A stretch of 64,000 nucleotides of DNA from a virus. How positions within the stretch are numbered: the stretch's first letter is position 1; every line of letters begins with the position of its first letter. The translations under genes and the position numbers were made by a program. The notes beneath the pieces are model-generated. The model saw nothing but the letters and a program-made list of their open reading frames with translations, ran no database searches and was not told the origin of the DNA. The DNA lies in the IMG/VR virus record IMGVR_UViG_3300042397_001844, positions 1 to 64,000 of that record, one strand, 5' to 3'. Positions 1-19,638 of this stretch are shown here, in pieces.

Positions 1-76
1 TTCTTTGTGGTGCTAATGATAAATCTTTCGTAGGGTCAAAGTTTGGAAACCCCTTCACTTCTTCTTGTTCTTCCAT
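1..76 (-). CDS. hypothetical protein, 5' part only (runs off window start)
   Basis: ATG at 76, reads MEEQEEVKGFPNFDPTKDLSLAPQR; ATACTTATA motif upstream; not in ORF track. Confidence 0.5.
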   Translation of the reverse strand, partial: MEEQEEVKGFPNFDPTKDLSLAPQR

Positions 77-139
77 AACTAAATTTGATACACTTTTTAT
101 GTTTCTATATATAAGTATATCAATTTTCTTTTTTCGTAA

Positions 140-565
140 CTACAATTTATTAATTTCTTTCAAGTGATGAATTAATTTTGTAAAAGATTGTGTTGAATTG
201 TCCGATGTTGTATCTAAATCAAAGAAGTTTTCGGTTGGTGGTTCATAACCATCAACTTTTGGCAAATCTTTACTTTTCTTACGATTACTATGTATATAAA
301 TTTCAAATATATTTTCACCTAAAATAGATTTAAATTCTTCTCTATGTTTTTTTGATATATCTGTCATAGCTACTACAACATCACAATTATTTTTCAATAA
401 AAAAGTTGAAATAATTTGCGCTTCTCCCAATTGAGAATGATGCGGAAAATCTATAAGGAAAACATCCTTACGCCAATTTCGTTTTTCGGTTTGTAAGAAA
501 TCTCTTAGCTTAGTAGCTAATACAGTTTTTCCCGAACCAGTTTGTCCTGTAAACCAATATATCAT
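140..565 (-). CDS. adenylylsulfate-kinase-like P-loop kinase (shortened)
   Basis: IYWFTGQTGSGKT Walker A and YEPP..LDT tail as in CysC; only 141 aa. Confidence 0.6.
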   Translation of the reverse strand: MIYWFTGQTGSGKTVLATKLRDFLQTEKRNWRKDVFLIDFPHHSQLGEAQIISTFLLKNNCDVVVAMTDISKKHREEFKSILGENIFEIYIHSNRKKSKDLPKVDGYEPPTENFFDLDTTSDNSTQSFTKLIHHLKEINKL

Positions 566-607
566 AACTTAGTTTTTTATAAGTATCTTTTTTTTAATTA
601 TTTGTAT

Positions 608-2392
608 TTAAGGTATCATTACAATAGATACATTAGCTCCCTTTTCTTTTTCTGGATATGTGGTAGAGAATATATGCTTTACCTTACCACCATTTAATAA
701 TGCTGAACTTTTATTTCCAGTTGTACAATCAGTCCAAAATATATATCCACCATTTGCTGCTCTACAAAAATATTCTACACAATCAGGCGGTGCTGCCGTT
801 GTTGTGGTTGTAGTTGATGTTGATGTAGTTGATGTTGAAGTTGAAGTAGTACTTGTTGATGTTGTTGTGGTAGTGGTTGATACTGCACTATAATTAGAGT
901 ATAGTATTTTTTGTGCACTGCCTAATAAACTTCTAGTGTTAGAATAATCCGTAGTATTTCCAGTTGTATATAAAACACTACCAGCCGTATTTAATAAAGA
1001 TGTTTTTATTTGTGCTGGCGTATATGTTGGATTTAATTGTAATACTAGTGCTGCCACACCTGCTACTTGAGGAGTTGCCATTGATGTACCACTAATATTT
1101 GTTTGTTTATATGATGCGTTTAAATAATAATTTTGAGAACCACCACCCCACTTATTTGTATTGGATGTTGCACTCATTATATCAGTACCAGGTGCCCATA
1201 TACTAACTCCCGGTCCAGTTTCACTATAAGTTGCTCTTTGGTCATTGGTAGCATCATAAGTAGTACTATCCATAGAACCAACCATAAGAGCATTATCACT
1301 ATATGGAGATGAACCTCTATGATAATAAATTGTATCAGTATCAGTAACTACAAAATTGTTATAATCAGTCCCACCGGATACATCTATTTTAGTTCCCCTA
1401 TTTCCAGCTGCTATACAAACAATAACACCTGCCGCAATTAATTCCTCAATATCAGTATCAACCGAACCAATTCTTACATTGGCAAGATATGTAGTTGTAC
1501 TTCCTGCTGATGAATTTAATCCGTAGTTTGTGTATCTATATGATGCGTTTCCTGTTGTTGATACATCCGTATATGATGTACCTCTATATGTTAAAGATGT
1601 TACTGTATTGTATCCTTGTCCATATCCCCAACTCATATTAACTATCGTTGGTCTAGCTCCTGCTTTAGAAGTATGCCATGTTTTAATAGCATCAAATGCG
1701 TAAGTAATACTAATACCAGTACCACTATCACCACTACCTTCTAATCCTGCTAATTTTTGAGAATATACTCTTGCTTCCTTTGCCCAACCATATGTTTTAC
1801 CACAAGCTATACCAGCACAATGTGTACCATGCCCATCGTAATCTCTATAATGATTTGCGTTTTGTGTGAAAGCTCCACCACTATAAGCACCCCAATTCAA
1901 TTGTTGAACTCTTGTATTACCACTACCATCTTGAAATTCTGGATGGTCTATTTGTAAACCACTATCTTGAATTACAACATCAACACCCGTACCATTTAAA
2001 GTATATGTATAATTTAATGCAGTTGTTGTACCAATACCATAAACGTTTGTTGCATTAGATGAACGAATCAATCCCCAGTTAAGGAATGCTCCACTATCAG
2101 AAGTTGTTTTTGTAAAATCCCCTGTTTGTGTTACGGTTGGCATCATTACGATATCCGTTCTAAACTCCGGTGGTATTTCTACACAAAATACTCTATCATC
2201 TTGTCTTAATAATTCAGCTTCTTCATCGGTAAGTAAATACCAACATTGACGTAACGATGCAGGTCTTTCGTTTGTAAATTCTACTGCTCTATTTGGAATA
2301 TAAAGTTTACCACCATCGGTATCACTTTCCATATCATTCCAAAAACCATCGTAGTCTATTCCCTCCTTAAGTGCAACGTTATATTGTTTCAT
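608..2392 (-). CDS. S8 subtilisin-like serine protease with C-terminal Thr-rich linker and Cys module
   Basis: VVIQDSG, HGTHCAG, AAGN and SGTSMATP catalytic motifs. Confidence 0.92.
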   Translation of the reverse strand: MKQYNVALKEGIDYDGFWNDMESDTDGGKLYIPNRAVEFTNERPASLRQCWYLLTDEEAELLRQDDRVFCVEIPPEFRTDIVMMPTVTQTGDFTKTTSDSGAFLNWGLIRSSNATNVYGIGTTTALNYTYTLNGTGVDVVIQDSGLQIDHPEFQDGSGNTRVQQLNWGAYSGGAFTQNANHYRDYDGHGTHCAGIACGKTYGWAKEARVYSQKLAGLEGSGDSGTGISITYAFDAIKTWHTSKAGARPTIVNMSWGYGQGYNTVTSLTYRGTSYTDVSTTGNASYRYTNYGLNSSAGSTTTYLANVRIGSVDTDIEELIAAGVIVCIAAGNRGTKIDVSGGTDYNNFVVTDTDTIYYHRGSSPYSDNALMVGSMDSTTYDATNDQRATYSETGPGVSIWAPGTDIMSATSNTNKWGGGSQNYYLNASYKQTNISGTSMATPQVAGVAALVLQLNPTYTPAQIKTSLLNTAGSVLYTTGNTTDYSNTRSLLGSAQKILYSNYSAVSTTTTTTSTSTTSTSTSTTSTSTTTTTTAAPPDCVEYFCRAANGGYIFWTDCTTGNKSSALLNGGKVKHIFSTTYPEKEKGANVSIVMIP

Positions 2393-2435
2393 TTATTTAC
2401 TTATAGTGTATTATTGATAAATATTCTATTTTAAA

Positions 2436-3224
2436 CTATTTGACGTATCTATTATAATATTCAACATTCAAATTGTCTAAATTATTGTTAATCCAAATAT
2501 AGTATTTTTCATATACTTCATGTAATTGTAATTTTGATAATTTTTGTAAAGGTCTCTTTGCGTAATCAGTTGATGCTAATTTATGATTTTCAAAATTATC
2601 AGGCGAACCAATTGCTCCACTTTGTTTATGGCCGGCAACTTCATGTGGGTCACTCCAATTAAAACAATAAGATGGAATATAATTATTATTCCATTCATCT
2701 AATTGCTTTTCATCTCTTAATTTAGTGTACCAACTCAATCCTTCATATCCAGTAATATCTGAACGGAATCCGATTTCTCTAATTCTATTCATCTTTACTA
2801 TTACACTTGCTTCTAATGTATTTTGGCACATCTCTATTTTAGTATGAGTTGCAAATAAACTTGCTCTAGGTTTCCAAGCATCAGTTCCTAATTCTTCAAT
2901 ACCTTCTACTGCCTGTTGTATGTGCCAAGGTAAATAAATGTCATCATCATCTGCTAACATAAAATAATCACCAGTAGCATGAGTAATCGCATCTCTACAT
3001 ATCTGTCCTCTATTCTCATACTCACATGCTGTCTGATAATTTATGTTGTTATTCACAATTATAATGCTATCATCTTCAAATCCCAATTCGTATGGATGTT
3101 CTTCATCGGTATTGAATATAATCAATTCTTTGTTTGGATATGTTTGTGCATGATATTGTGCTACTATCCTTTCAACACAAGTAAATCTACCATAGGTAGT
3201 ACATACGAAACTAACTTTTTTCAT
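2436..3224 (-). CDS. GT2-family glycosyltransferase
   Basis: VSFVCTTYGR, QTYPNKELII, DYFMLADDDD. Confidence 0.85.
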   Translation of the reverse strand: MKKVSFVCTTYGRFTCVERIVAQYHAQTYPNKELIIFNTDEEHPYELGFEDDSIIIVNNNINYQTACEYENRGQICRDAITHATGDYFMLADDDDIYLPWHIQQAVEGIEELGTDAWKPRASLFATHTKIEMCQNTLEASVIVKMNRIREIGFRSDITGYEGLSWYTKLRDEKQLDEWNNNYIPSYCFNWSDPHEVAGHKQSGAIGSPDNFENHKLASTDYAKRPLQKLSKLQLHEVYEKYYIWINNNLDNLNVEYYNRYVK

Positions 3225-3993
3225 TTAAGTATTTTTTATATTCTTTTAATCCTTTTTTCAAATTGAATTTTGGCTTCCAATTTGGCATCCATTTATTTTC
3301 TAAACTTAGTGTTTGAAACTGGTATCCTTTTGGTATTTTTGATTGATTGTGATATGTGTATTGTAATCCTAAATTATCAAATATTGTTTCAAATGTATTA
3401 CTCTCACCACTACCAACTTCGTACCAATTTCCTTTTAGTTTATCATAGTTTTCTAATGCGTATAAATTAGCATTTACAATATCATCAATATAAACAAAAT
3501 CTCTTTTTGGTTTACCTGGAAATAATTTAATTTCATTATTATTTAAATTCTGATAAATCATTGATGCCATTTTTCCTTTATGTTCTTCGCCCGGCCCATA
3601 CACATTAAAATATCTTAATGCAATACCACCTTTAGCAACAACATAATCTTCACCCATTAACTTTGACCAACCATATAAGTTAGAAGGTTTCTTACCATCA
3701 AACCCATATACAGCTGCTGATGATGCATATATTATTTTTTTATTGTTAGTAATACACCAATCAGTAATCCACTTTGTAGATAGATAATTTCTTTCCATAA
3801 CAAATCCAATATCAGTACAAAGAGTATCACTACATGCTCCGATATGAAATACTACATCTGGTTGATGTATATTTAAAAAGTTATTTATATAAGATTCATC
3901 ATATCTTTTATCTATACCAATTACTGATACAAATTCTTTGAATAGATTCTTACCAACAAATCCTTTATGTCCAGTTATTACTATCTTATCCAT
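3211..3993 (-). CDS. ADP-heptose 6-epimerase (HldD/RfaD)-like NAD-dependent epimerase
   Basis: TGHKGFVG, FHIGACSDT, YASSAAVYG, YGWSK, RYFNVYGPGEEHKGKMAS. Confidence 0.8.
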   Translation of the reverse strand: MDKIVITGHKGFVGKNLFKEFVSVIGIDKRYDESYINNFLNIHQPDVVFHIGACSDTLCTDIGFVMERNYLSTKWITDWCITNNKKIIYASSAAVYGFDGKKPSNLYGWSKLMGEDYVVAKGGIALRYFNVYGPGEEHKGKMASMIYQNLNNNEIKLFPGKPKRDFVYIDDIVNANLYALENYDKLKGNWYEVGSGESNTFETIFDNLGLQYTYHNQSKIPKGYQFQTLSLENKWMPNWKPKFNLKKGLKEYKKYLNEKS

Positions 3994-4625
3994 TTTTTAT
4001 ACATATCTCTGTATTGTTTTTCTCTTTTTATTTTACCTCCCCATAAATCACTTTCGAAATCATCATCTTGCCAAGCTAATAATTCCTTAGACATATAATA
4101 ATTGTTATCATACATACCCATATAAATTGTATCAATAATACCCATCGTATATGGTAAATTAATTACCTTATCATAAAACGATTCATTGATTACATATGCA
4201 TGAGTAGCGTACATACCAGCAGTACATTTAGCCAACGTATCACTTACACTATCACACCAACTACCCGGCTCACCCCCCATATAAAATATATCCCATTTTT
4301 TATCTTTCAGTTCCTCTATACATTCTTTAACCTTATCAACAAACCCATCTACAAATACGCAATCATCTTCAAATATTACACAATTTTTCCAACCTCTACG
4401 TTTTGCTTCTTTAATCATTTCAAAGTGAGAGTATGTGCATGATATCTTAATATGCCAATTATTTCCGTTGAATGGATTTGGCACATCTTCTTCTTTAAGT
4501 TGAATAGCTGAGAATCTTTCTATTTCAAATCCAGCTTCTTTACTTCTCTTTTCAAATGCCTCTTTCCTTTCAGTTCGTTTATCTAAGTTAAGATAAAATC
4601 CACCATCAAAATAATCAAATATCAT
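3981..4625 (-). CDS. GT25-family glycosyltransferase
   Basis: YLNLDKRTER, SCTYSH, IFEDD, THAYVI. Confidence 0.85.
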   Translation of the reverse strand: MIFDYFDGGFYLNLDKRTERKEAFEKRSKEAGFEIERFSAIQLKEEDVPNPFNGNNWHIKISCTYSHFEMIKEAKRRGWKNCVIFEDDCVFVDGFVDKVKECIEELKDKKWDIFYMGGEPGSWCDSVSDTLAKCTAGMYATHAYVINESFYDKVINLPYTMGIIDTIYMGMYDNNYYMSKELLAWQDDDFESDLWGGKIKREKQYRDMYKKWIR

Positions 4626-4626
4626 A

Positions 4627-5334
4627 TTACTTAGGTATTGCTATATAATCAACTAAATGGTCTGCATCAATAACTTTTTTATATGAATATCCCAATGAAT
4701 CTAATCTATTGAACACATCATTTTCATTCCAACCATATATTTGTAATTGTGGAAACTCAACTTCTATAAAGATTATTGGTTTATGTTTTTTAATCGTTTC
4801 TATTGCGCCATCTAATACTTTTGGTTCGTAACCCTGTACATCTATTTTCAATACCGCTACATCTTCAAACTCATAAGAATCCAAAGGTCTAACTTCTACA
4901 TCATTATAACCAGAACCATAGTAAGCATCTAAATGAGCATTACCAATATTGATTGTATCATCTGAATGATATTGTAGATTTTCCATTTTAAGATTTGTAT
5001 GTTCATCACTTAATGCTATATTGTGTGCAGTTATATTATCATATCCATTCAGTATTATATTTCCACATAATTGATAGTAAACTAACTTTTGTGGTTCAAA
5101 TGATATTACTTTACCATCATCAACTAAATCGGCAAATTCTAATGTATGAAATCCAAAGTTAGCACCAGCATCAATTATAGTCTTTCCTTTAATATCTACA
5201 TTATCTTTGATATAATCAAAAATATAGTGTTCATAGATACCACCCTTACGAGTCATATCAGTTACACCACAATCATTTTTAAATAGAATATACTCCTTAC
5301 GAGTCTTTACATATTCGATTGGTAATTTTTTCAT
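4627..5334 (-). CDS. FkbM-family SAM methyltransferase
   Basis: IDAGANFG, FEP, KIDVQGYE. Confidence 0.9.
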   Translation of the reverse strand: MKKLPIEYVKTRKEYILFKNDCGVTDMTRKGGIYEHYIFDYIKDNVDIKGKTIIDAGANFGFHTLEFADLVDDGKVISFEPQKLVYYQLCGNIILNGYDNITAHNIALSDEHTNLKMENLQYHSDDTINIGNAHLDAYYGSGYNDVEVRPLDSYEFEDVAVLKIDVQGYEPKVLDGAIETIKKHKPIIFIEVEFPQLQIYGWNENDVFNRLDSLGYSYKKVIDADHLVDYIAIPK

Positions 5335-6515
5335 ATTAATACTGATTTTTGTCCTACTTTTCTAACCCATTGATAATAATACCAACTAGCCGTTCCTTCC
5401 GTTATATTCAATATATCTCCATATGGCAATTTATCCATATATTGTGCTTTATAAAATTTACCAGTATCGCTACTTGTGATACCAGCATTGTGAAATATAT
5501 TCATTCTCTTATAATCATCTTCGTTTGATGTTGCCCAACTGAATTCCATATTAGGGTGGCATTCTGTGTGTGCTCTCATTTTCCAAGCGTTCCATAATAC
5601 AGCCCACATATCAGCACACCATATTTGTAATTCGTGATGTGTTGGGTCTAATTCTTTCTTTTGTTTATTTAACTGATTTATATCTTTGAAAAGTAATTCA
5701 GATTCTCTTTCAACTCTATCCCAATAGTAATGAGTTATACCCTTCATTATATATTGTGCACCTATTGCGTTTTTTTCATAAGCCCTAACAACTCCTTTAT
5801 TTATACCAACTATCTCACACATCTTAGTAAGTACATCATCTCCTTTAGATAAAATGTAATCATGTCCAATATACCAACGAGTATCTGAACCATACCACTT
5901 CTCATCATTAATCATTTCATCCGTAATCCATTCATTTATTGGCTTGGTAAATATGATATCACAATCATGATAGAATATCGTTTCATCTTTTAATTCAGGA
6001 TATTTTTCCCAATGCTGTTTTAGTATATTAGGTCTTATAGATGATATGTAATCTTTTGTTACTCTAGTATCATCATAAAAAAAGAAACGAGCAGCGTAAG
6101 CATTAGCTAATTTGGACCAAGCTTCAGGAATTGTACCATCTTCTTTCCAACATACGATATCAACATTATTTAAGTTGATACCCATTTCCATAAAATTGTT
6201 TAACATTACTTCTACCTGCCAAGTGTAATAAGGGATTGCAGGTTGTGCTGATACGAATCTTAGATTTTTCTTACTTTTGTATTTTACTAATTTGTCTTCA
6301 ACATATGCCCATCTGTTATCAGGACATTGTCCCATTTCTTGAGTAAATACTTTTGATTTCAACATACACCCACATAGTGAACATACATTTTTTACACCAT
6401 CAACTTCTTTTTTATTGGGGCACGAATTACAAACTTCAATTCGTTTGGATGCTAATTCATTTCTCTCATCATTTGGGTTGTAATCAATACCCCAAGATTT
6501 AAAAATTTCTTCCAT
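5331..6515 (-). CDS. GT-A glycosyltransferase resembling peptidyl-Ser/Hyp O-glycosyltransferases (GT96/GT95), with N-terminal Cys-rich domain
   Basis: YYTWQ, DYISSIRPN, YHDCDIIFTKPI (DxD), WCADMW, FHNAG; N-terminal CxxC..CxxCGC..CP..W. Confidence 0.65.
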   Translation of the reverse strand: MEEIFKSWGIDYNPNDERNELASKRIEVCNSCPNKKEVDGVKNVCSLCGCMLKSKVFTQEMGQCPDNRWAYVEDKLVKYKSKKNLRFVSAQPAIPYYTWQVEVMLNNFMEMGINLNNVDIVCWKEDGTIPEAWSKLANAYAARFFFYDDTRVTKDYISSIRPNILKQHWEKYPELKDETIFYHDCDIIFTKPINEWITDEMINDEKWYGSDTRWYIGHDYILSKGDDVLTKMCEIVGINKGVVRAYEKNAIGAQYIMKGITHYYWDRVERESELLFKDINQLNKQKKELDPTHHELQIWCADMWAVLWNAWKMRAHTECHPNMEFSWATSNEDDYKRMNIFHNAGITSSDTGKFYKAQYMDKLPYGDILNITEGTASWYYYQWVRKVGQKSVLI

Positions 6516-6561
6516 TTTGTGTATAACCTTTATTTAATATAATTATCAAATTTTTAATATT

Positions 6562-8334
6562 TTAACAAGTTCCATCAACACCACTTACATTTAATGCTGG
6601 GCTTGAAGTTCCATCTAAATATTGACCAGTAAATGTTAATGATTGTCCACTACCCACTCCTGCATTTTGACAACTGGTAGTATTGGTACTATCAGTTACC
6701 TCTACTTTCTGTCCACCAGTACTACATCCAAAATAAACAACCACATCGTATGTTCCAACTTTAGCAACAGTTCCATTAACATTTTCATTAACACCAATAA
6801 CAATTGGATATGATGATGAATTTAGTGTTACAGATACACCATCTACTGTTACATCGGTGATTGTTATATCCAATGATGGTTGTACACTTATAAATACTTC
6901 TGAACTTGTTGGTGCTGCCGTTGTTGTTGAAGTACTTGTAGATGTCGTTGAAGTACTGGTTGATGTTGATGACGTAGATGTTGTTGTAGCTGGACAACCA
7001 GTAGTTCCGGCCCCACCCACAGTAACAACATCAATTAAAGGTCCACCAGGATTTGATGTTAATTCAGCCAATACATACCAAAACGCTCCACCAAATGTAA
7101 CTCTTTCATTGATAGCAAATGTACCAATTGCTTTTTGTGTAGAGTTTTGAGTAGTACCATTTGTACAAGAATATAAAGAATACCAAGCGGGTGCTGATGT
7201 TGTAGTTGTAGTTGTTGGCGGCTCCGTTGTAGTTGTAGTTGTTGGCGGCTCCGTTGTTGTTGTAGTTGTAGTTGTTGGAGCTGCTGTTGTTGTGGTAGTT
7301 GTTGATGTAGTTACTCCAGTACAAGCAGTTTCATTTTGTAAATTACCAACACCAGCTGCCGTATTCCAATATTTTACACCATTTGAATAGTAGCCATTTG
7401 CTACTGGTGTGGTTAATGCAGATGTTGTATATAATATAGTGCCCGTTCCCAAAGTTGCACCAGGACCAGCATAATATACATTTCTATTAGTTGGAGTTGC
7501 ATAATCTGTACAAGCAACTTGCCCATCGGAATTACTGTATGTTAAACTGAATGGTGTGTAACTTAATGTAGTTGTGGTTGTTGTTGGTGCTGCCGTTGTA
7601 GTTGTAGTTGGTGCTTCTGTTGTTGTACTTGTACTTGTTGTTGATGTGGATGTTGATGTTGATGTTGAAGTACTTGTTGATGTTGAAGTAGTACTTGTCG
7701 ATGTTGAAGTAGTACTTGTCGATGTTGTTGTAGTTGTTGTTTGTGGACAAGGTGTACCATTTGAAAGAACACCACCACTTGCGGCAACATTAACTTCCCA
7801 ATAATCAACACCATTTGAATAAAATCCATCTGCTACAATATTTGTATATACACCATCTACATATAAAGTATTACCATCAGCAAGTGCACCGCCAGGTTGT
7901 AAATAATATGTTGCTGTGTCTGGAATTGGTGCTGTAAATTTATAACAAGCAGTTGGTCCATCCACATTACTATAAGCTAATGTAACCGGTATAGCTGCCA
8001 ACGTTGTTGTTGAAGTAGATGTTGAAGTTGATGTTGTTGATGTACTTGTAGTTGATGTTGTAGGTGCTGCCGTTGTTGAAGTAGATGTTGAAGTACTTGT
8101 AGTTGATGTTGTAATACCAGCTATGTTTATAACTAGCTGATTAGTACAAGCACCCGTTGATGTAACAAATATATTAGTTGCGCCATCGGGTGAAACAGTT
8201 ATAGATTTTCCAGCTATTAACTCACTTCTAGTTGCAGTATTGGGTGTAACAGTATGCCCACTATTTGAAGTAAGGTTAAAGTTAGGTCCTAAATTAGCTC
8301 CCATTCCAGAATCAAGTGTCAACAATATATCCAT
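6562..8334 (-). CDS. mucin-like Thr/Ser-rich modular protein, probably virion surface or fibre
   Basis: small beta-rich Cys-flanked modules separated by four poly-Thr/Ser linkers; no evident signal peptide. Confidence 0.7.
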   Translation of the reverse strand: MDILLTLDSGMGANLGPNFNLTSNSGHTVTPNTATRSELIAGKSITVSPDGATNIFVTSTGACTNQLVINIAGITTSTTSTSTSTSTTAAPTTSTTSTSTTSTSTSTSTTTLAAIPVTLAYSNVDGPTACYKFTAPIPDTATYYLQPGGALADGNTLYVDGVYTNIVADGFYSNGVDYWEVNVAASGGVLSNGTPCPQTTTTTTSTSTTSTSTSTTSTSTSTSTSTSTSTSTTSTSTTTEAPTTTTTAAPTTTTTTLSYTPFSLTYSNSDGQVACTDYATPTNRNVYYAGPGATLGTGTILYTTSALTTPVANGYYSNGVKYWNTAAGVGNLQNETACTGVTTSTTTTTTAAPTTTTTTTTEPPTTTTTTEPPTTTTTTSAPAWYSLYSCTNGTTQNSTQKAIGTFAINERVTFGGAFWYVLAELTSNPGGPLIDVVTVGGAGTTGCPATTTSTSSTSTSTSTTSTSTSTTTAAPTSSEVFISVQPSLDITITDVTVDGVSVTLNSSSYPIVIGVNENVNGTVAKVGTYDVVVYFGCSTGGQKVEVTDSTNTTSCQNAGVGSGQSLTFTGQYLDGTSSPALNVSGVDGTC

Positions 8335-8359
8335 ACTTTTAAATATTCTTTTTTATTTT

Positions 8360-9472
8360 TTATAAACAACTAAGTGTTCCATATTCTATTACTACCACAT
8401 CAGATGAAGTAAATGTTACGTTACTAAATGTATATGTACCACTTCCACCAACATATAAAGTTTCGATATCTATACTATTGACGGTTAAAGTCATACATTT
8501 AGCTGTGGTTACACCGGACAACTCAACATAAATTGGTCCATTAGTTATAGTAGCACCCCCACCACTTGCGTTTTGACCTATTGTGATTGGAAACGCTCCA
8601 ATATCAAAGAAATAAAAATATGCACCACCAGTAGTATTTACATCTTCTATTTGTCCATCCGATGCCGTATTTGTTACCGTAAAGCTTCCTCCTGGTGCTG
8701 CAGTTGTAGTTGTTGTAGTTGTTGTAGTTGTACTTGTTGTTGGTGGTTGCGTTGTCGATGTTGATGTACTTGTAGTTGATGTTGGTGGTTGCGTTGTCGA
8801 TGTTGATGTACTTGTAGTTGTTGTATATACCATTACCGCAGTACCTCCATTATAATTACAATTAACAGCCGCTGTGGTTGTTGATGTAGTTGATGTTGAT
8901 GTAGATGTAGTCGATGTAGTTGAAGTCGATGTTGTAGTTGTTGTATTTGTACAATTAACCGCAGTACTTTTTGTAGTCGATGCTCCACTACTATCTCTTA
9001 AAATTATAAACCAAGTTCCGTTAAATACACCAGTAAAACTATATGTACTAGCTCCACTCAATGCTATTGGTGTTGCCGATAATGCTGAACCTGCGGAATT
9101 ACCTATTGCTACACTCGTATATGTACCATTACCACCACTAAATCCATTGACAATTATTTTACCAGTACCATTAGTTCCACTACCCTCACAAGAAGGAGTT
9201 AGTGTAAAATCAACAGGAGGTATTGTTGTTGATGTCGTTGTAGTTTCTCCAATCAAATAACATCCAGTACAATCATCATTACAATATCCAATTATAGATA
9301 CCGTTGCTGCTGCGGATGCTGATACAGTATTGTTTTGTGCTTGGAAATCAATAGAAAGTAATCCATTGTGTAGGTATTGCGTAGGACCATAATAACCCTC
9401 ACACTCAATCCAGTCCACTTTTGAAAATGAACCCGCTGGTACTGCAACTCTATAAAGATTTATATTAGCCAT
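8360..9472 (-). CDS. mucin-like Thr/Ser-rich modular protein
   Basis: poly-Thr/Ser linkers between beta-rich modules; C-terminal module resembles that of 6562..8334. Confidence 0.7.
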   Translation of the reverse strand: MANINLYRVAVPAGSFSKVDWIECEGYYGPTQYLHNGLLSIDFQAQNNTVSASAAATVSIIGYCNDDCTGCYLIGETTTTSTTIPPVDFTLTPSCEGSGTNGTGKIIVNGFSGGNGTYTSVAIGNSAGSALSATPIALSGASTYSFTGVFNGTWFIILRDSSGASTTKSTAVNCTNTTTTTSTSTTSTTSTSTSTTSTTTAAVNCNYNGGTAVMVYTTTTSTSTSTTQPPTSTTSTSTSTTQPPTTSTTTTTTTTTTAAPGGSFTVTNTASDGQIEDVNTTGGAYFYFFDIGAFPITIGQNASGGGATITNGPIYVELSGVTTAKCMTLTVNSIDIETLYVGGSGTYTFSNVTFTSSDVVVIEYGTLSCL

Positions 9473-9519
9473 TGATTAATTAAATAGTGTCAATTACTAA
9501 TAAGTATCTATCCTTTAAA

Positions 9520-9762
9520 TTATGTGGTTACTAAAGAAGCTTGATATGCTGCTATCACTTCTTCTGTCCAAACTGCATTTGCGATAGCTTGAACTTTTGG
9601 GTCTTCGTTTACAATATTATCACCAGGTGCTAATACATGTCTATGAAATGTTCTTGCAATTTCAGTACCATCTTTTTCAATGATATTTGCAGTACGAACT
9701 TGGATGTGATTTGATTGTACAAGTTCTACTAAGTCTACGATTTGTTTTTCTATTAATGCCAT
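9520..9762 (-). CDS. small tail-fibre-associated protein
   Basis: IQVRTANIIEKDGTEIARTFHRHVLAPG..VQAIANAVWT; a type typically following DYEEGTFTP-domain fibres in aquatic phages. Confidence 0.65.
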   Translation of the reverse strand: MALIEKQIVDLVELVQSNHIQVRTANIIEKDGTEIARTFHRHVLAPGDNIVNEDPKVQAIANAVWTEEVIAAYQASLVTT

Positions 9763-9780
9763 TTTATATTAATTTTATGT

Positions 9781-12700
9781 TTATACGAAATATGTTAGTG
9801 TAGCTCTTATCACATTTCTATTACCCGTTACATCTGCCATATCATCTGTCTTAACCGCAACCGGGTCAGTTCCAGCACCAGTTGCGCCAGAATCTCTATA
9901 AAGAAGAATTTCAGTTACGTTTGGTTGGATAACACCATATTTTGGCGGGTTTGTACTCCACCTAGAAGAATCTCCTATAACTAATGCGTTTGTAGCTTGA
10001 GCTGTAGAATTTGATGTAAATGGAAGTCCGCCTATTTTAAGGTTTTCAGAACCAACTACAGTAATATCTTCCGTCATTAAACAAATTGTAACAGTTACCA
10101 AACGACCAACTTTAGTGTACCACCCAAATTGATTACCATAAGTAACAACAGTTAAATTCGTTCCAGTATATGTTGGTGTAAATGTTCCTTCTTCGTAATC
10201 ATTTAATAATTCGGAACCTGTTGTACCACTACCATTTGATGTTGCCGAGAAGTCTATACCTTTACCAGATGTACCCATTACTAAGTTACCGGCTTTGATA
10301 TTAACATCACCAGCAGCTGTCATAGATACTCTTGTAGTAGTTGATGGCAACGTTGCATTATCAGCTGATACTTGTACGTCCAATGTTCCCCAACCCTCAT
10401 AGTTTGGAATCAATCTCCAGTTTCTAGCACCTCCGTTAGCCTGTGCTAATTGTGTAAAGTTTAGAGTTGGTGAATCACCATTTGAGATGATTGAAATACC
10501 ACTAGCTCCAACAGAATTAACCGCCAAAGAGCCACTTATACTTTGATTACCTTTAAATATAGAATCACCATTAGTTACTAAAGACCTTTGTACAATTAAT
10601 TTACCTATATTAGCATCAGCAATTCCATCAACAAGAGAAACTTCTGAAATAGTTAATGTTATAGTTCCAGTTGTTGGGTATCCGGCAAAACCTATGTGAG
10701 TTGCGGATGCAGATGCTGTGAAGGTTACAGTATTATATACACCATTCGTTACTGATGGTAATGTTAATGTTTGAACTGTATTGGTTGCAAAGTTAGTACC
10801 ATTTGATGTTATTATATTTCCTAATGTACCATTCGTTTCAACTGATTTAAAAAATAATGTATAGGTATTTCCACTTACTATCGTTGCTGGAAAATACCCA
10901 TATCCTTGGTCTACTGCATCCACTCCAGTAAATGAAGTTGTAGTTCCAGTAAAACTACCATCAAATCCTCTATTACCACCACCAGTTCCATTAACAGCCG
11001 TTCCTAATTGTACGGATTTTAAGGTGCTACCAGTATTTGATATTGCTTTAATATCACCACTTATAGTTTGTGTACCATAAAATGTATTTGCCGATGCCGT
11101 TTCAGCGAACTTATAATAGTTTGTTATTTGTTGTGAAGATGATACAATTGCTGCTCCTTTTAAAGATGCCGTATATGCTTCAATACCACCTATCTCAGCT
11201 TTGATTGATGCGGTTTCAGCGTACAATTGATAAAGTTGTGCATCAGTTGCGTATGTTGAATCTAATGCCGCGGTAAACGCCATCAAACCATTTGTTATTC
11301 CAATAAGAGAACCCGTAGTTAATTCAATAGAACGAGTTGCCTGATATAGTTGGAATAATTGTACATCAGTTGCGTATGTCGAATCTAATGCTGCCGTAAA
11401 TGCCATCAATCCGTTTGTGATTCCTATTAGAGAACCAGTAGATGTATATAGATTAGAGTTTAATGCGAATACATCATAATTTTGAACCTGCGTTGATGAT
11501 GATACAATTGCTGCTGCTTTTAAAGATGCAGTATAAGATTCTATTCCAGCTACTTCCGCTTTTATAGAACCTGTACCATTATATAAGTTAGAGTTTAATG
11601 CGAATACATCGTAGTTCTGAATTTGTGTTGATGATGATACAATTGCTTGTCCTTTTAAAGATGCAGTATATGCTTCAATACCATCAACTTCACCTCTTAA
11701 ACCAGTATTCAAAGAAGTATTAGATGCCGTATATGCCATTAAACCATTTGTCACACCTATCATTGAACCACTATGTAATTCTAATGAACGAGTTGATTGA
11801 TATAATTGATAAAGTTGTGCATCAGTTGCGTATGTATTATCTAAAGCCGCAGTGAATGCCATCAAACCATTAGTTATTCCTATTAAAGAACCAGTTACAG
11901 TTGAGAGTGTTAAGTTTCTACTATCTTGCGATGCGGTAAATTGTTGTAAAGATGCGGTAGCTACATGTAATGATTGTGTTGTCTGATGTACTCTAGCTAA
12001 TGTATCTCTTACCGATGATGTATATGTACTAATTCCAACAATATGAGAATCAACCGATGCCGTATAAATTGAGTTACCTAAGTTTACTGCTAATTGAGAT
12101 GAAGTAAATGCACTAATACCAACAATATGTGCATCAGTTGAAGATGTATATTGTGATATTGTAAAGTTTCTACTATCTTGTGATGCGGTAAATGCGTTTA
12201 AAGATGCCGTAGCTACATGTAATGATTGAGTAGTTTGATATACTCTAGCCAACTCACTATTAGTACCAGCTACGAATGCAGTAATTGTTGTTGAATTGGA
12301 ACTACTAAATATAGTATTATAGCTTGAATTAGAACTACTGAATGTTGTATTGTAGCTTGAATTGGAACTACTTAATGCGGTTACATATGTTGCGTTTGAA
12401 CTACTAAATATAGTATTATAGCTTGAATTTGAACTACTTAATGCGGTTACATATGCTGCGTTTGAACTACTGAATGTGGTATTGTAGCTTGAATTGGAAC
12501 TACTAAATGTAGTGTTATATGTGGAATTTGATGAACTAAAGTTTGTAAATACCGTTGAGTTTGATGAACTATATAGTGTATAATCTTGTCCATTTATAAA
12601 TACCGAACCAGTAAAATTAGATGAACCTGTAAATTGTTGTTTGTCTATAAGTTCATTACCAAAAATGTTACCGCCCTCCGAATATATTATACTTGCGGTT

Positions 12701-12969
12701 TCATATGTAGCTACTAACTCATTTACTGTTAATTTTCCAGTAATAGTAACATTGTTATTAATAGTTTGAGGACCTGTAAATACGTTACCAGCAGAACCCG
12801 TATGTGCGTTGTATGCATTTACAAATACGCTAAAATTTTCTACACTAATTTGGTTGGTAGTTCCTTGCAGTCCACCCCCAATAACGATTGGTAATACACT
12901 CCCTCCTGCTACTTGTGAGCCGGATACCCTATTGACTAAAGGTAATTCTGATATCTTTTTGGTTGCCAT
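9781..12969 (-). CDS. long tail-fibre-like protein with internal repeats
   Basis: N-terminal KKISELP, coiled-coil-like repeats, C-terminal GIDFSAT..DYEEGTFTP..YTKVGRLV..LPF domain. Confidence 0.75.
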   Translation of the reverse strand: MATKKISELPLVNRVSGSQVAGGSVLPIVIGGGLQGTTNQISVENFSVFVNAYNAHTGSAGNVFTGPQTINNNVTITGKLTVNELVATYETASIIYSEGGNIFGNELIDKQQFTGSSNFTGSVFINGQDYTLYSSSNSTVFTNFSSSNSTYNTTFSSSNSSYNTTFSSSNAAYVTALSSSNSSYNTIFSSSNATYVTALSSSNSSYNTTFSSSNSSYNTIFSSSNSTTITAFVAGTNSELARVYQTTQSLHVATASLNAFTASQDSRNFTISQYTSSTDAHIVGISAFTSSQLAVNLGNSIYTASVDSHIVGISTYTSSVRDTLARVHQTTQSLHVATASLQQFTASQDSRNLTLSTVTGSLIGITNGLMAFTAALDNTYATDAQLYQLYQSTRSLELHSGSMIGVTNGLMAYTASNTSLNTGLRGEVDGIEAYTASLKGQAIVSSSTQIQNYDVFALNSNLYNGTGSIKAEVAGIESYTASLKAAAIVSSSTQVQNYDVFALNSNLYTSTGSLIGITNGLMAFTAALDSTYATDVQLFQLYQATRSIELTTGSLIGITNGLMAFTAALDSTYATDAQLYQLYAETASIKAEIGGIEAYTASLKGAAIVSSSQQITNYYKFAETASANTFYGTQTISGDIKAISNTGSTLKSVQLGTAVNGTGGGNRGFDGSFTGTTTSFTGVDAVDQGYGYFPATIVSGNTYTLFFKSVETNGTLGNIITSNGTNFATNTVQTLTLPSVTNGVYNTVTFTASASATHIGFAGYPTTGTITLTISEVSLVDGIADANIGKLIVQRSLVTNGDSIFKGNQSISGSLAVNSVGASGISIISNGDSPTLNFTQLAQANGGARNWRLIPNYEGWGTLDVQVSADNATLPSTTTRVSMTAAGDVNIKAGNLVMGTSGKGIDFSATSNGSGTTGSELLNDYEEGTFTPTYTGTNLTVVTYGNQFGWYTKVGRLVTVTICLMTEDITVVGSENLKIGGLPFTSNSTAQATNALVIGDSSRWSTNPPKYGVIQPNVTEILLYRDSGATGAGTDPVAVKTDDMADVTGNRNVIRATLTYFV
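11130..11900 (-). repeat. internal peptide repeats of fibre (TGSLIGITNGLMAFTAALDxTYATD x3; YTASLKxxAIVSSSxQ x3)
   Basis: visible in translation and nucleotide sequence; boundaries approximate. Confidence 0.85.
12290..12575 (-). repeat. 33-nt (11-aa) tandem repeat, SSSNSSYNTTF-type, about 8-9 copies
   Basis: visible in translation; boundaries approximate. Confidence 0.85.
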
Positions 12970-13044
12970 TCTTAAATATATTTATACACGTTGGTATTCA
13001 ACTCCTATAAATATTGAAAAAATGAAATAAACTACTACTACAAG

Positions 13045-13575
13045 TTAGAAGTGTTTAACTTGTTGTATTTTTTGCTTAATATTTGGATAATCTTTCAATC
13101 TCTTTCTAACTGCAGCTATATTCTTTTCTGAATCATCTACGAAGAAAACATCATCATACCCCTCTTTTACTCTATCCTCAATCCAATCTGCTTTCTTTTC
13201 AGGATTATTATCACCCAATGCAATTACCTTCACACCACCTATCCCCAAATCCTTAATGAATTGAGATACGGGCCTTTCAGCTGCTCTAGCCGTTAAGATA
13301 TAAACTTCTCTACTTCCACCACTATTAACCATTCTTCTCAATAATTCAACATATCCTTTTATAAGTTCGGGTCTTGTCACTTGCTGAAAATCTTTGAAAT
13401 CGAATTCATCACCATCTCTAGCATCATACTTTGCGTATTGACCAGGCGATAGTTTTGATTTCATTCCGTTTCTATGTGTAACATATATGAATGAGTTTGT
13501 TTTAACTAACGTATCATCAAAATCAAAAATACGCAGTTTTTTACTTTCTACAAACAATGTTCTTGCTATTGGCAT
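13045..13575 (-). CDS. HAD-superfamily phosphatase
   Basis: FDFDDTL, ILTAR, FVDD motifs. Confidence 0.8.
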   Translation of the reverse strand: MPIARTLFVESKKLRIFDFDDTLVKTNSFIYVTHRNGMKSKLSPGQYAKYDARDGDEFDFKDFQQVTRPELIKGYVELLRRMVNSGGSREVYILTARAAERPVSQFIKDLGIGGVKVIALGDNNPEKKADWIEDRVKEGYDDVFFVDDSEKNIAAVRKRLKDYPNIKQKIQQVKHF

Positions 13576-13576
13576 C

Positions 13577-13900
13577 CTATCCGTTTATTTGTCTCTTAGT
13601 CTTTGGGAGTGCTTTTTCTAACTTATCGTTCTCTTTTGTAAGGAATTCAACTTTAACACCCAATGCTGCCACTTCTTTTGTAAGTTCTAACACCATAGTA
13701 CGAAGTTCATCTTTCTCTTTTGAACTATTTTCTAATAAGGCTTCTAATTTAGAGATACGGTCTTTACAATCGTGTCTGATAAACTCATCATCTCTTTCTT
13801 TATTTAGTGCTCTCTTTTCATAATATCTCCAAGCACCCGTTCCACCCAATACGGTGATAGCTGTGATTAATACTGAATACATATTTTCCATACTTAACAA
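13577..13900 (-). CDS. membrane-anchored coiled-coil protein (holin-like architecture)
   Basis: one N-terminal hydrophobic helix followed by heptad coiled coil. Confidence 0.5.
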   Translation of the reverse strand: MLSMENMYSVLITAITVLGGTGAWRYYEKRALNKERDDEFIRHDCKDRISKLEALLENSSKEKDELRTMVLELTKEVAALGVKVEFLTKENDKLEKALPKTKRQING

Positions 13901-14931
13901 GTTTTACATTCTTTTATTGGTTCTTCTTCCGTTTGAGGTAACGCTGCAGCTACATGCTCCACTCCTTTATCATCAACGTATTCGTTTTTTGGTTTTTGTG
14001 TCATTCTAGCTGCTACCAATGAGATAACTGCAATTGTGAAAAATATAAAGAAAGCATACATTCCTAATTTACCATATATAGAACCTTCAGCTTGCCCAGC
14101 CCTTCCCAAATCTTGCATTACTTTCATTACTTCGGGTTCTGCTAATTTCTGAATTTCGGTGTAATACCATTTTGTGAATGATGAATCTAAATATTGTATC
14201 CAACCACCCATAGATACCAATGCGGTAATAATACTCAACATAGTAGCACCAGTTCCTAATTTAACTGCAATCTTATTAATTGTAGCTTTAAGGTCCTCAT
14301 CTAAATCGTTTTGTTGTAATAGTGCAGCTGTTGCTTTGTTCATAGCATCTTTACCATTGAAATCATCAGATGATGCTATGTTATCGATGTTGAGATGTGA
14401 TTTAGCTCTATCATATTTTATAGATGCCATCTTAATTGCCAAATTTCTAATCTTCTTTATAGAATCACCCAACCCTTCATTTAATGTAGATTCTTTTTTA
14501 ATACTATAATCTTTCTTTATATTAGAAAGTGTTTGTAATGCGTTTTTTAATCTATCTTGAAATAATTTCTTTTGTTCCGATGATTTAGTTGCCGATAGTT
14601 TATCTCTTAATGCTTTAATTCTATTATTAAGGTTTTGTATTCTTTCTCCAGCCGGAACTGCTGCTTCTTTTACTGATTCCAATTTCAACTTAAAATGGTC
14701 CATTACATCCCAAATTTCATTATATCCCATATCACCCAAGTCATCCAATATTTGATTTCTATTTGCATTTGTTTTGCCAGACACAAATATAGATACTGCC
14801 TTTTTAGTGCTATATGTACCTTTATCGTAGAATTTCATTATTTCCTTTACATGAATATCGTTTTTAGACATTTCATTCATAAAGTCTTCTCTTACTACTG
14901 AGCGGATTATTTCTTTAAGTTGCTTTTCCAT
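13894..14931 (-). CDS. hypothetical protein with two C-terminal hydrophobic segments
   Basis: 345-aa ORF with coiled coil and two TM-like stretches. Confidence 0.55.
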   Translation of the reverse strand: MEKQLKEIIRSVVREDFMNEMSKNDIHVKEIMKFYDKGTYSTKKAVSIFVSGKTNANRNQILDDLGDMGYNEIWDVMDHFKLKLESVKEAAVPAGERIQNLNNRIKALRDKLSATKSSEQKKLFQDRLKNALQTLSNIKKDYSIKKESTLNEGLGDSIKKIRNLAIKMASIKYDRAKSHLNIDNIASSDDFNGKDAMNKATAALLQQNDLDEDLKATINKIAVKLGTGATMLSIITALVSMGGWIQYLDSSFTKWYYTEIQKLAEPEVMKVMQDLGRAGQAEGSIYGKLGMYAFFIFFTIAVISLVAARMTQKPKNEYVDDKGVEHVAAALPQTEEEPIKECKTC

Positions 14932-14967
14932 TTATATATGTACCAATTTAGATATAAATATAAAGTT

Positions 14968-15864
14968 TTAAGGATTAGATTGTTTTTTAATCAATTCTTT
15001 GGCAAATTTGGTAACTTCTTCTTGTCCTAATGAATTAGCTTTATCATAAAACTCTTTTTTTCTATCAATCGGTTTAATTTTACCATCAAACGATGGGGTT
15101 CTATTTAAGTAATCTTCGGTAATATACACACCATCCATAACAAATTGCTTAATATCATAACCAATTTTTTTAGCTAATGTGGCTGCTGACATTCCATATG
15201 TATCTTCCGGCCCATATCCTCCAAATGATTCTGGGATTCCTACAAGTTCCCAAAATGATTTAGAATATAATGTATGCATACCACACCCAAATTTAATAGT
15301 ACGAACTTCTCTAGCATTAATTGCACCAATGGTTTGAGTATATGTACCTTCCATAACTTCTTTAGTATCTATTGCATAACCATATGGTTTATCAAAATAA
15401 TCAGAGTGACATAATTCATCCCAACTACTATCCCACCACTTTGCCAAAGATGGAGAAAGTATATAAGTACCATCTAATTGATATGATATATTTAATTGAT
15501 GTTTTAACATATGTTCATGAAACAAAATATCAGTATCACAAAATATGAATTGGTCATAATCCAATTTATAACTTTCTCTCTTTTGTTGAGTAGTTCCCCA
15601 ACAAGATGTATCCAATATTACTTCATTAATATTTTTTACACCATTAAATAATATTGCAAAACGAGATATAAAATGTCCGTTTTTCAATTCACTGTTTTCC
15701 CAATCGGTCAATTCTGGGTTTAGATTTAATGTTACTTTTAAGGTTACATCATCATTATCATCCAAATACATTAATGCTCTTTTCATTTGATGCATTAATC
15801 TTTCAAACATTTCAATCTCCGATGGCATAACGTGTATGCAAATAAGTGTTTTTTTCTTAGCCAT
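14968..15864 (-). CDS. putative GT-A glycosyltransferase
   Basis: FCDTDILF (DxD) and FGGYGPED motif. Confidence 0.6.
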   Translation of the reverse strand: MAKKKTLICIHVMPSEIEMFERLMHQMKRALMYLDDNDDVTLKVTLNLNPELTDWENSELKNGHFISRFAILFNGVKNINEVILDTSCWGTTQQKRESYKLDYDQFIFCDTDILFHEHMLKHQLNISYQLDGTYILSPSLAKWWDSSWDELCHSDYFDKPYGYAIDTKEVMEGTYTQTIGAINAREVRTIKFGCGMHTLYSKSFWELVGIPESFGGYGPEDTYGMSAATLAKKIGYDIKQFVMDGVYITEDYLNRTPSFDGKIKPIDRKKEFYDKANSLGQEEVTKFAKELIKKQSNP

Positions 15865-18460: not shown

Positions 18461-19215
18461 TAATAGATTTTAATATGTTTACCAACCTTTGTTACTCCTT
18501 TATGCTGAACTGCTATTGTAGCACATTCGTTAGCATAAATGATAGATTTATCAATATCATTACTTCTACAATATTCTATTGTTAGTGCTGATATGAATGA
18601 ATCACCTGCTCCGCTATTATCTCTAACCTCTACCTCATCAACATTGAACTCCTTCTCCATATACTTACATCCCTTACCACTCATAGTTACAATTAATTTA
18701 TCGTAGAATTCTTTGAAGTATTGTCCAGCTGCTATATTGTTTTCATACTCATGTTCATTTATTTTAATGAACTTAGCACCTAACATTTTTTCATTCACAA
18801 TCTTTTTAGTATCAATGAATACCGTATCATGCTTTGAACAAATGTATTCAATATCATCGTATTCCAAAAAACCTTTGTTGTAATCTGATATAATAACTGC
18901 ACAATAATTTTGATATGGTATATGTTCCAATCCTTGTACTCTTTGTGATTTATTTGCATCAGAATCAACTCTGATAATTTGATGATTTGTTTTTTCTTCA
19001 ACATATCGTGTCTTTGTGATAGGTTCTGAATTTGTTATCAAATCAACTTCAACATTTAATGATTCTATATTCTCATATACATTAGCTGCCATTCCGCCTG
19101 TTTCAGTTTTTCTTTTAGGAATGAATACAGGCACAGGAGCTTCAGGACACAGCCTATTGGCTGTGCCATAAATGAATACATCTTTACAACTATCTCCTAT
19201 AACTAATATTTTCAT
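18460..19215 (-). CDS. PfkB-family sugar kinase, HldE (RfaE) kinase-domain-like
   Basis: RLCPEAPVPV, GGMAANV, SDYNKG, GAGDSF. Confidence 0.85.
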   Translation of the reverse strand: MKILVIGDSCKDVFIYGTANRLCPEAPVPVFIPKRKTETGGMAANVYENIESLNVEVDLITNSEPITKTRYVEEKTNHQIIRVDSDANKSQRVQGLEHIPYQNYCAVIISDYNKGFLEYDDIEYICSKHDTVFIDTKKIVNEKMLGAKFIKINEHEYENNIAAGQYFKEFYDKLIVTMSGKGCKYMEKEFNVDEVEVRDNSGAGDSFISALTIEYCRSNDIDKSIIYANECATIAVQHKGVTKVGKHIKIY

Positions 19216-19231
19216 AACTTTTGTTTTAATA

Positions 19232-19636: not shown

Positions 19637-19638
19637 AA

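Follow-up and report, generated by a model that had tools for sequence, protein, structure and literature searches.

What does a phage enzyme act on when its gene lies directly behind two genes whose products are packed with threonine and serine? The question is raised by a gene at positions 5331 to 6515 (minus strand) of the window, the whole 64,000-nucleotide (nt) stretch of DNA analyzed here, which makes up positions 1 to 64,000 of the IMG/VR virus record IMGVR_UViG_3300042397_001844 (72,886 bases, estimated 38% complete). The initial annotation had proposed, from ordered sequence motifs, that the product resembles the plant peptidyl-serine galactosyltransferase SERGT1 (GT96) and the related hydroxyproline arabinosyltransferases HPAT (GT95), and that it starts O-glycosylation of the proteins encoded upstream. 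We find that the gene belongs to phrog_4417, an uncharacterized, very widespread and mostly phage-borne enzyme family with a recognizable substrate signature, and we favor, with moderate confidence, the view that the enzyme is the initiating O-glycosyltransferase for virion proteins.

A conserved core and a cysteine-rich module

The gene, its parts and the two genes that precede it are:

5331-6515, minus strand: enzyme gene, 394 amino acids (aa) in two modules, candidate O-glycosyltransferase for virion proteins (open reading frame listing)
6273-6515, minus strand: N-terminal Cys-rich module (aa 1-81) with the pattern CxxC...CxxCxC...CPxxKW, probably zinc-binding (Cys conservation)
5331-6272, minus strand: candidate core catalytic domain (aa 82-394; AlphaFold2 predicted local distance difference test (pLDDT) 90-99)
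5958-5966, minus strand: codons of D184-C185-D186, candidate DxD for binding metal and nucleotide sugar (invariant in 75 rows)
5490-5492, minus strand: codon of H342, which may be the third metal ligand (invariant in 75 rows; strand 340-342)
6562-8334, minus strand: 590-aa protein with six dense Thr/Ser tracts between small globular repeats, proposed acceptor (tract scan)
8360-9472, minus strand: 370-aa protein with four Thr/Ser tracts in aa 177-257, proposed acceptor (tract scan; no Pfam, PHROG or NCBIfam match)

The open reading frame (ORF) of the enzyme is uninterrupted, begins with ATG and encodes 394 aa. Its ATG follows the stop of the 590-aa gene by 46 nt, and a promoter/terminator scan, which returned fewer sites than it did for shuffled sequence, found no terminator-like site in that gap. 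With a T+S fraction of 0.40, the 590-aa protein is the highest of the window ORFs with dense tracts, and the placement of the enzyme gene directly past the most Thr/Ser-rich gene, as first described, is confirmed. The seven ordered motifs on which that description relied are likewise all present in the 394-aa protein: YYTWQ (aa 96-100), DYISSIRPN (155-163), YHDCDIIFTKPI (182-193), YIGHD (215-219), GAQYIM (252-257), WCADMW (299-304) and FHNAG (341-345). They are not chance strings and fall on the conserved core of a protein family. In an alignment of 75 rows, made up of the window protein and 74 relatives from bacterial genome contigs, mean identity of the relatives to the window residue is 0.61 at the 48 motif positions versus 0.29 at the other 265, and eleven residues (W99, Y156, D184, D186, Y215, G252, Q254, W299, M303, W304 and H342) are invariant in all 75 rows.

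The core corresponds to phrog_4417 (aa 86-387 against profile positions 2-291 of 293, E 7.2e-63, 213 bits) and the N-terminal module to phrog_13558 (aa 5-69, E 6.5e-10), both of which are annotated as "function unknown". The six cysteines of the N-terminal module (Cys6) are kept in the 20 copies found among the loci; the module is zinc-ribbon-like, probably binds zinc and possibly serves in substrate docking. Pfam DUF6171 is matched by 2 of 50 relatives (E 1.9e-5). The Cys6 module is joined to the core in the window and in loci L085, L005, L036, L039 and L049. In other loci it is a small ORF of its own about 2.4 kb downstream of the enzyme gene; the subclade with a separate Cys6 module, which has no adjacent Thr/Ser gene, comprises L031, L034, L037, L038, L040-L042, L044, L046, L047 and L080.

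Pairing with Thr/Ser-tract genes and virion proteins

We defined a dense tract as at least 12 Thr or Ser in 15 residues, found in at least three placements of the scan. By this definition only three ORFs of the 64 kb carry dense tracts, all of them within the gene cluster around the enzyme, and runs of eight Thr codons occur in the whole 72.9-kb record only in the two genes upstream of it. Tracts of the 590-aa protein include aa 75-111, 199-239, 342-361 and 450-472. This protein has no match in Pfam, PHROG, NCBIfam or GenBank phages and only low-complexity matches in PDB; 8 of 80 viral loci have a relative of it upstream of the enzyme gene.

These 80 loci, with 46-67% identity, are the best of at least 594 IMG/VR relatives. 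Of the 75 that include 600 nt or more of sequence before the enzyme gene, 53 have a dense-tract ORF on the same strand whose end is no more than 300 nt upstream, and none of 77 has one whose start is within 300 nt downstream; among the other ORFs of at least 200 aa in those loci, 15 of 343 carry dense tracts. When the enzymes are clustered at 70% identity, the pairing is kept in 20 of 26 assessable clusters. It extends to phages and prophages of Enterococcus, Lactobacillus, Chryseobacterium and Bacillaceae, in which the enzyme is distant (28-36% identity). In Enterococcus phage phiFL1A the enzyme gene, gp51, begins where the gene for the major tail protein stops; about 25 residues at the end of this tail protein are Thr/Ser-rich, and the phage has a poly-Thr end on its major head protein as well. 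Lactobacillus phages iLp84 and Iacchus encode a mostly poly-Thr protein of 126-129 aa directly upstream of the enzyme gene, Chryseobacterium phage MA9V-3 has two tract-bearing ORFs there, and in at least 10 of 13 Bacillota prophage loci the upstream ORF has a terminal poly-Thr run. On a midpoint-rooted tree of 166 copies, scored by a looser label (8 T/S in 10 residues, ORF ending within 400 nt upstream), pairing is present on both sides of the root, in 17 of the 22 rows of a clade in which phages and prophages of Bacillota predominate and in 60 of the 89 rows of an environmental-phage clade. The acceptor is probably the Thr/Ser tracts themselves, as this genomic association suggests.

Where the upstream tract proteins can be named from their matches, they are virion parts. 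Eight from paired loci, selected by length and diversity, were scanned: two match phrog_14478 (virion structural protein), one matches the major tail family phrog_1407, and five have a match of unknown function or none. In phiFL1A, iLp84, R3.3 and the Bacillaceae prophages the enzyme gene is part of the head-tail morphogenesis operon, flanked by the tail-tube gene and the tail chaperones, and is thereby linked to virion structural genes whose products bear the proposed acceptor.

The presence of the tails also follows the presence of the gene. Tail-tube and capsid proteins homologous to those of phiFL1A were compared across eight siphoviruses of Firmicutes, phiFL1A included, a small sample chosen by hand from 76 records with a tail-tube homologue and from the records matching the enzyme. 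In phiFL1A, R3.3 and iLp84 (L003, L172 and L004), which have the enzyme, the capsid and tail-tube proteins are both poly-Thr-ended. In Javan47, 315.6, phiJL-1, ATCC8014 and SPP1 (L167-L171), the homologous proteins stop at the equivalent point and are tail-less, with no more than 7 T/S in their best 15 residues. The family profile matched none of these five records; as a control, it recovered the gene in five of five records known to have it. Poly-Thr tails on the capsid and tail-tube proteins are, in this comparison, found only in gene-bearing phages (three with, five without).

Such a distribution bears on a reading in which the tract pairing is a hitch-hiking cassette and the real target is phage DNA bases, as in T4-type modification, or the glycans of the host envelope, as in lysogenic conversion. 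These are the best-known roles of phage glycosyltransferases according to passages of one article (PMC12619734), the Iacchus pair lies near replication genes, and 22 of 75 loci are unpaired. We nevertheless regard this reading as very improbable, because in phiFL1A, iLp84, R3.3 and the Bacillaceae prophages the gene is inside the head-tail operon rather than in lysogeny or replication modules, and because hitch-hiking offers no explanation for tails that two essential proteins carry only in phages with the gene.

A longer extension was seen in the record behind locus L052 (37,557 bases, rated 100% complete). Its major tail protein, which matches phrog_1407 over the first 207 aa, is lengthened to 656 aa; the extension is Thr/Ser-rich, and the enzyme gene lies 19 nt downstream.

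Evidence for a glycosyltransferase

To what class of enzyme the conserved core belongs was addressed with a structure model, with the domains fused to relatives and with sequence, profile and ESM Atlas searches. The AlphaFold2 input consisted of 50 rows, the window protein and 49 of 150 listed representatives, for which stand-alone forms were chosen. The model has a mean pLDDT of 90.7 and a predicted template modeling score of 0.83, with pLDDT values of 90-99 in the core and 53-77 in the N-terminal module. In the core it predicts strand 85-92, helix 95-110, strand 118-123, helix 131-139, strand 143-147, helix 157-177 and strand 179-183, then the DxD; that is, the core would open with four beta-alpha units, forming a Rossmann half, and D184-C-D186 would come directly after strand 4 (179-183). 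A DxD directly after strand 4 of a beta-alpha half is the GT-A arrangement. With its DxD modeled at the end of strand 4 and its N-terminal half modeled as Rossmann-like, the core appears to be GT-A-like, a class assigned from the order of secondary structure elements and the DxD.

Fusions to known glycosyltransferase domains recur in the family. Ten long representatives were scanned, of which two carry GT2 plus PF04488 (GT32-like), one GT6, one a radical-SAM/SPASM domain, one a methyltransferase and five no recognizable extra domain. Eleven relatives of 794-2265 aa were found, with GT2 in all eleven and PF04488 as well in eight, and scanning of nine chromosomal fusions gave Glyco_transf_7C in two, GT2 in one and nothing in six. 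Comparison of the family profile with the fused GT2 and GT32-like domains by hhalign returned a probability below 1% (nine sequences each, Neff 1.4-1.7); an hhalign comparison with the C-terminal domains of 37 chromosomal fusions gave only an artefact of overlapping sequence ends, and both comparisons were set aside as uninformative. PF23452, the closest of the named families in the ESM Atlas, is one of glycosyltransferases.

These observations can be held against the proposal that the protein is some other nucleotide-dependent transferase acting on the tails, for example of a sugar phosphate or phosphoryl group, or a non-catalytic assembly factor. No recognized glycosyltransferase model matches the enzyme, as that proposal would have it, and Stealth_CR2 gives a weak match (E 0.17) in 1 of 50 relatives. 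The invariant DxD and His, the beta-alpha Rossmann half, the repeated glycosyltransferase fusions and the nearest family in the ESM Atlas all argue otherwise, and eleven residues invariant in 75 rows favor catalysis over scaffolding, so that we consider the proposal improbable. On the combined basis of the invariant DxD and His, the model, the fusions, the gene neighbors and the ESM Atlas, the enzyme is very probably a glycosyltransferase.

One family member of 658 aa, P0013, is fused to a radical-SAM and a SPASM domain. This arrangement is typical of peptide-modifying maturases and thus gives a hint of peptide substrates for the family.

Which enzyme adds the first sugar

If the enzyme is a glycosyltransferase, its position in the pathway has to be judged against that of the other sugar-handling enzymes encoded nearby. 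The rest of the same-strand run consists of:

4627-5334, minus strand: FkbM-family methyltransferase, candidate sugar O-methyltransferase (Pfam PF05050, 1.2e-17; TIGR01444, 3.4e-28)
3981-4625, minus strand: GT25-family glycosyltransferase, candidate chain extender (Pfam PF01755, 9.4e-11)
3211-3993, minus strand: SDR nucleotide-sugar epimerase, heptose-6-epimerase-like (PF01370, 7.8e-32; TIGR02197, 1.3e-50, below cut-off)
2436-3224, minus strand: GT2-family glycosyltransferase, candidate chain extender (Pfam PF00535, 1.8e-07)
608-2392, minus strand: subtilase (Peptidase_S8) with a 28-residue Thr/Ser linker (aa 505-532) followed by a Cys-rich C-terminal domain (PF00082, 4.3e-36)
9781-12969, minus strand: 1062-aa repeat-rich, fibre-like protein heading the run (phrog_17970, unknown function, aa 820-996, E 5.4e-19)

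The enzyme gene is thus followed on its own strand by the genes for the FkbM methyltransferase, which overlaps the enzyme-gene stop by 4 nt, the GT25 enzyme, the SDR epimerase and the GT2 enzyme, in that order, and the cluster closes with the subtilase, which may be a third acceptor. Across the 80 viral loci a GT2 homologue lies downstream of the enzyme in 13, and GT25, FkbM and epimerase genes in none; these three were seen beside the enzyme in two close genome-contig relatives. A constant core with variable accessory genes is the pattern expected of a peptide-recognizing enzyme whose product is handed to lineage-specific extenders, and from it we infer that the phrog_4417 protein would act first.

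In the mechanism that we propose, a soluble, cytoplasmic, metal-dependent (DxD) glycosyltransferase would put the first sugar on Thr and Ser hydroxyls of dense tracts, the acceptors here being the 590-aa and 370-aa upstream products and perhaps the subtilase linker. GT25, GT2 and FkbM would then extend and methylate the chain with sugars supplied by the SDR epimerase and a glycan-synthesis island of about 28 kb described below, and exposed parts of the particle would come to carry a mucin-like glycan brush. The enzyme has no hydrophobic segment (maximum 19-residue Kyte-Doolittle mean 0.74), nor has any protein of the gene cluster. Because the enzyme and its proposed acceptors also have no signal peptides or transmembrane segments, modification would take place in the cytoplasm.

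At least eight further glycosyltransferases are encoded in the window, and for this reason the first step cannot be assigned here by elimination. The enzyme could belong to the same virion-glycan pathway and yet add a later sugar onto a sugar acceptor, the first sugar coming from the GT2 or GT25 enzyme, from the island or from the host. Beyond the number of glycosyltransferases in the window, such a role would suit the chromosomal two-domain fusions of Bacteroidota, which have no tract neighbors and look as expected in polysaccharide synthesis, and the triple fusions with GT2 and PF04488, which resemble glycan assembly lines. It sits less well with the fact that the enzyme alone stays beside the tract gene, whereas GT2, GT25 and FkbM come and go, or with small complete temperate phages such as phiFL1A, where no other glycosyltransferase is annotated among the 61 features of the record; the poly-Thr tails, moreover, co-vary with the enzyme gene alone. 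We therefore think a later-step role rather unlikely; the unpaired loci and the fused chromosomal copies are what would favor it.

Several observations weigh against the initiating role that we prefer. The 80 viral loci are the closest relatives of the window enzyme and not independent samples, and 22 of the 75 assessable loci have no adjacent tract gene; in one of these, a complete 67-kb record (L018), the tract genes are about 20 kb off and include a homologue of the 590-aa protein. A complete 65-kb record with the enzyme (G411, the record behind L037) has no run of eight Thr codons, a pattern that is blind to mixed Thr/Ser runs. In a well-supported clade of 53 chromosomal Bacteroidota copies, 51 are without a tract neighbor; such copies are fused to a second glycosyltransferase domain, as might equally be expected if the acceptor were a sugar. 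The phiFL1A annotation may miss an unrecognized glycosyltransferase, and the abundance of such enzymes in the window itself has been mentioned. Finally, sequence searches of Pfam, NCBIfam and PDB with the protein and with profiles of its relatives gave no real match, and the fold class is taken from the order of secondary structure elements and the DxD.

A possible relation to plant GT95 and GT96

The two halves of the initial annotation fared differently. That the enzyme is a glycosyltransferase acting on the upstream Thr/Ser proteins gains strong independent support from the pairing in 53 of 75 IMG/VR loci, from distant phages and from the presence/absence pattern; the resemblance to GT96 SERGT1 and GT95 HPAT was not established. 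The HPAT model PF23452 does not match the enzyme at E <= 1 or reach its gathering cut-off of 23.9 bits. Among relatives it gave weak matches, below the cut-off, in 2 of 50 (best E 0.046) and none in sets of 75 and 10, and it matched nothing in the 72.9-kb record of the window, in five related viral records or in 401 Bacteroidota genomes. The genome-level searches also took in five bacterial genomes, and their only match, in L165 (E 0.02), was discarded, as it proved to be a membrane protein resembling fatty-acid hydroxylases. The protein-collection searches listed nothing that has a precomputed HPAT domain, and none of the 11 relatives found at 794-2265 aa is an SGT1-like long protein, which is weak evidence. 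Of the 30 named clusters that lie nearest in the ESM Atlas, 21 (scores 0.96-0.97) have PF23452, which is present on 10-58% of the proteins in them; we take this as a lead only. DUF7164 (PF23741) occurs in 6 of the 30, and PF23741 has no match in the record of the window.

GT95 and GT96 are described as related (PMC8012813), GT95 is predicted to be GT-A-like (PMC8476585), and the plant HPAT and SGT1 enzymes are Golgi type II membrane proteins (PMC8012813). The phage enzyme has no such membrane anchor; unlike the plant enzymes it is soluble and carries a Cys6 N-terminal module, and its proposed acceptors are Thr/Ser runs and not hydroxyproline or Ser-Hyp4. It would be like plant HPAT1-3 (GT95) and SGT1 (GT96) in what it does, as those enzymes start sugars on hydroxy-amino acids of repetitive, extended proteins, the extensins. 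We regard distant kinship with the HPAT enzymes as plausible and treat it as a lead.

The cluster, its possible sugar supply and its nearest relative

How would the proposed chain be supplied with sugars? Much of the answer may lie in the glycan-synthesis island of about 28 kb (14968-41691, minus strand), in which family matches identify:

15864-17096, minus strand: GT2
18460-19215, minus strand: PfkB sugar kinase
19639-20574, 20571-21545, 22264-23211 and 24612-25562, minus strand: four SDR epimerase/dehydratases
25553-26494, minus strand: GT1-like protein
29887-30993, minus strand: AMP-binding enzyme
32847-33848, minus strand: UDP-GlcNAc 2-epimerase
27342-29177, 39007-40299 and 40309-41691, minus strand: three phrog_2170 glycosyltransferases

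This sugar toolkit is unusually large for a phage. The record also encodes a family-B-type DNA polymerase, a ribonucleotide reductase, a DnaB-like helicase and a collagen-like fibre. A fibre-like protein of 693 aa (36387-38468, minus strand) matches collagen-like minor tail and tail fibre PHROGs, and the 1062-aa fibre-like protein at the head of the cluster contains many copies of a repeat of the type SSSNS-YNT-F.

The nearest relative of the whole cluster is L085, a contig 8,974 bases long that falls in the bin of a Chitinophagaceae genome. This contig has the same cluster in the same order, with protein identities of 78% for the enzyme, 92% for FkbM, 86% for GT25, 90% for the epimerase and 89% for GT2, and is probably a fragment of a sister phage. 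Its bin gives the only hint of a host, and a weak one, namely Chitinophagaceae.

A widespread family

How far the family reaches was estimated from several collections. A search of 1.84 billion cluster representatives gave 1025 relatives (E <= 1e-3); a collection of 5.8 billion proteins contains at least 3291 members, and IMG/VR at least 594 loci. Cultured phages with the family infect Enterococcus, Lactobacillus, Staphylococcus, Lactococcus and Clostridium, and 77 phage records match the enzyme. A megablast search with positions 1-20000 of the window found no match among GenBank phages. A search of full-text literature, with most subscription journals outside its coverage, returned no paper on this family or on phage poly-Thr tails.

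The chromosomal copies (loci L093-L154) are found in Chitinophaga, Pedobacter, Sphingobacterium, Mucilaginibacter and Elizabethkingia and form one clade. Most are fusions of 450-845 aa with a second glycosyltransferase-like domain, and some of the genomes have more than one copy.

More tentatively, and giving it somewhat less than an even chance, we suggest that phrog_4417 could be a family of peptide O-glycosyltransferases, very large and so far unrecognized, that has an ancient relationship with GT95 and GT96 and travels as a module of tail plus enzyme through phages of Bacillota, Bacteroidota and aquatic bacteria. The tails would be placed on capsid, tail-tube, decoration or fibre proteins, and one branch would have entered the chromosomes of Bacteroidota in the form of two-domain enzymes.

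Comparison with known protein glycosylation systems

Three known systems offer points of comparison. In streptococci and staphylococci, GtfA/GtfB is a cytoplasmic initiating O-glycosyltransferase of GT-B fold (GT4) that acts on Ser/Thr-rich repeat adhesins. The phage locus is like this system in its long Ser/Thr-rich acceptor and in the variable extenders encoded beside the substrate gene; it is unlike it in the predicted GT-A-like fold and in the virion substrates, which take the place of exported adhesins. The polypeptide GalNAc-transferases of animals (GT27), which are of the GT-A type and have a metal site, initiate O-glycans on dense Thr/Ser tracts and in this way give rise to mucin domains. 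The phage enzyme, by contrast, shows no sequence relation to any Pfam glycosyltransferase model and has no lectin domain, and would work in the cytoplasm and not in the Golgi.

For mycobacteriophages, the original paper on virion glycosylation is reportedly that of Freeman et al. 2023. Parts of two further articles describe how glycosyltransferases of these phages (Che8 gp110, Corndog gp38, Myrna) modify the C-termini of capsid and tail-tube proteins, and report that the glycosylation shields particles from antibodies (PMC12619734, PMC12363180). In both cases a phage-encoded enzyme acts, or in ours is proposed to act, on the virion proteins of the phage itself. The enzymes would be of a different family, since there is no Mycobacterium phage among the 77 matching phage records.

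Implications

Virion glycosylation by phage enzymes has so far been documented mainly in mycobacteriophages (PMC12619734, PMC12363180). If the proposed role is correct, a poly-Thr tail together with a gene of this family would be a simple signature that predicts glycosylated virions across much of the phage world. The plant enzyme families, whose fold and origin are unsettled, would gain a relative in a prokaryotic virus, and a soluble enzyme that can be expressed in bacteria would be at hand for making mucin-like glycopeptides. Such modification would bear on the stability of phages, on their adhesion to mucus and other surfaces, on immune recognition in phage therapy and on the determinants of host range. 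If the wider suggestion on phrog_4417 made above also holds, mucin-like glycan coats on phage particles would be common, and not a curiosity of mycobacteriophages.

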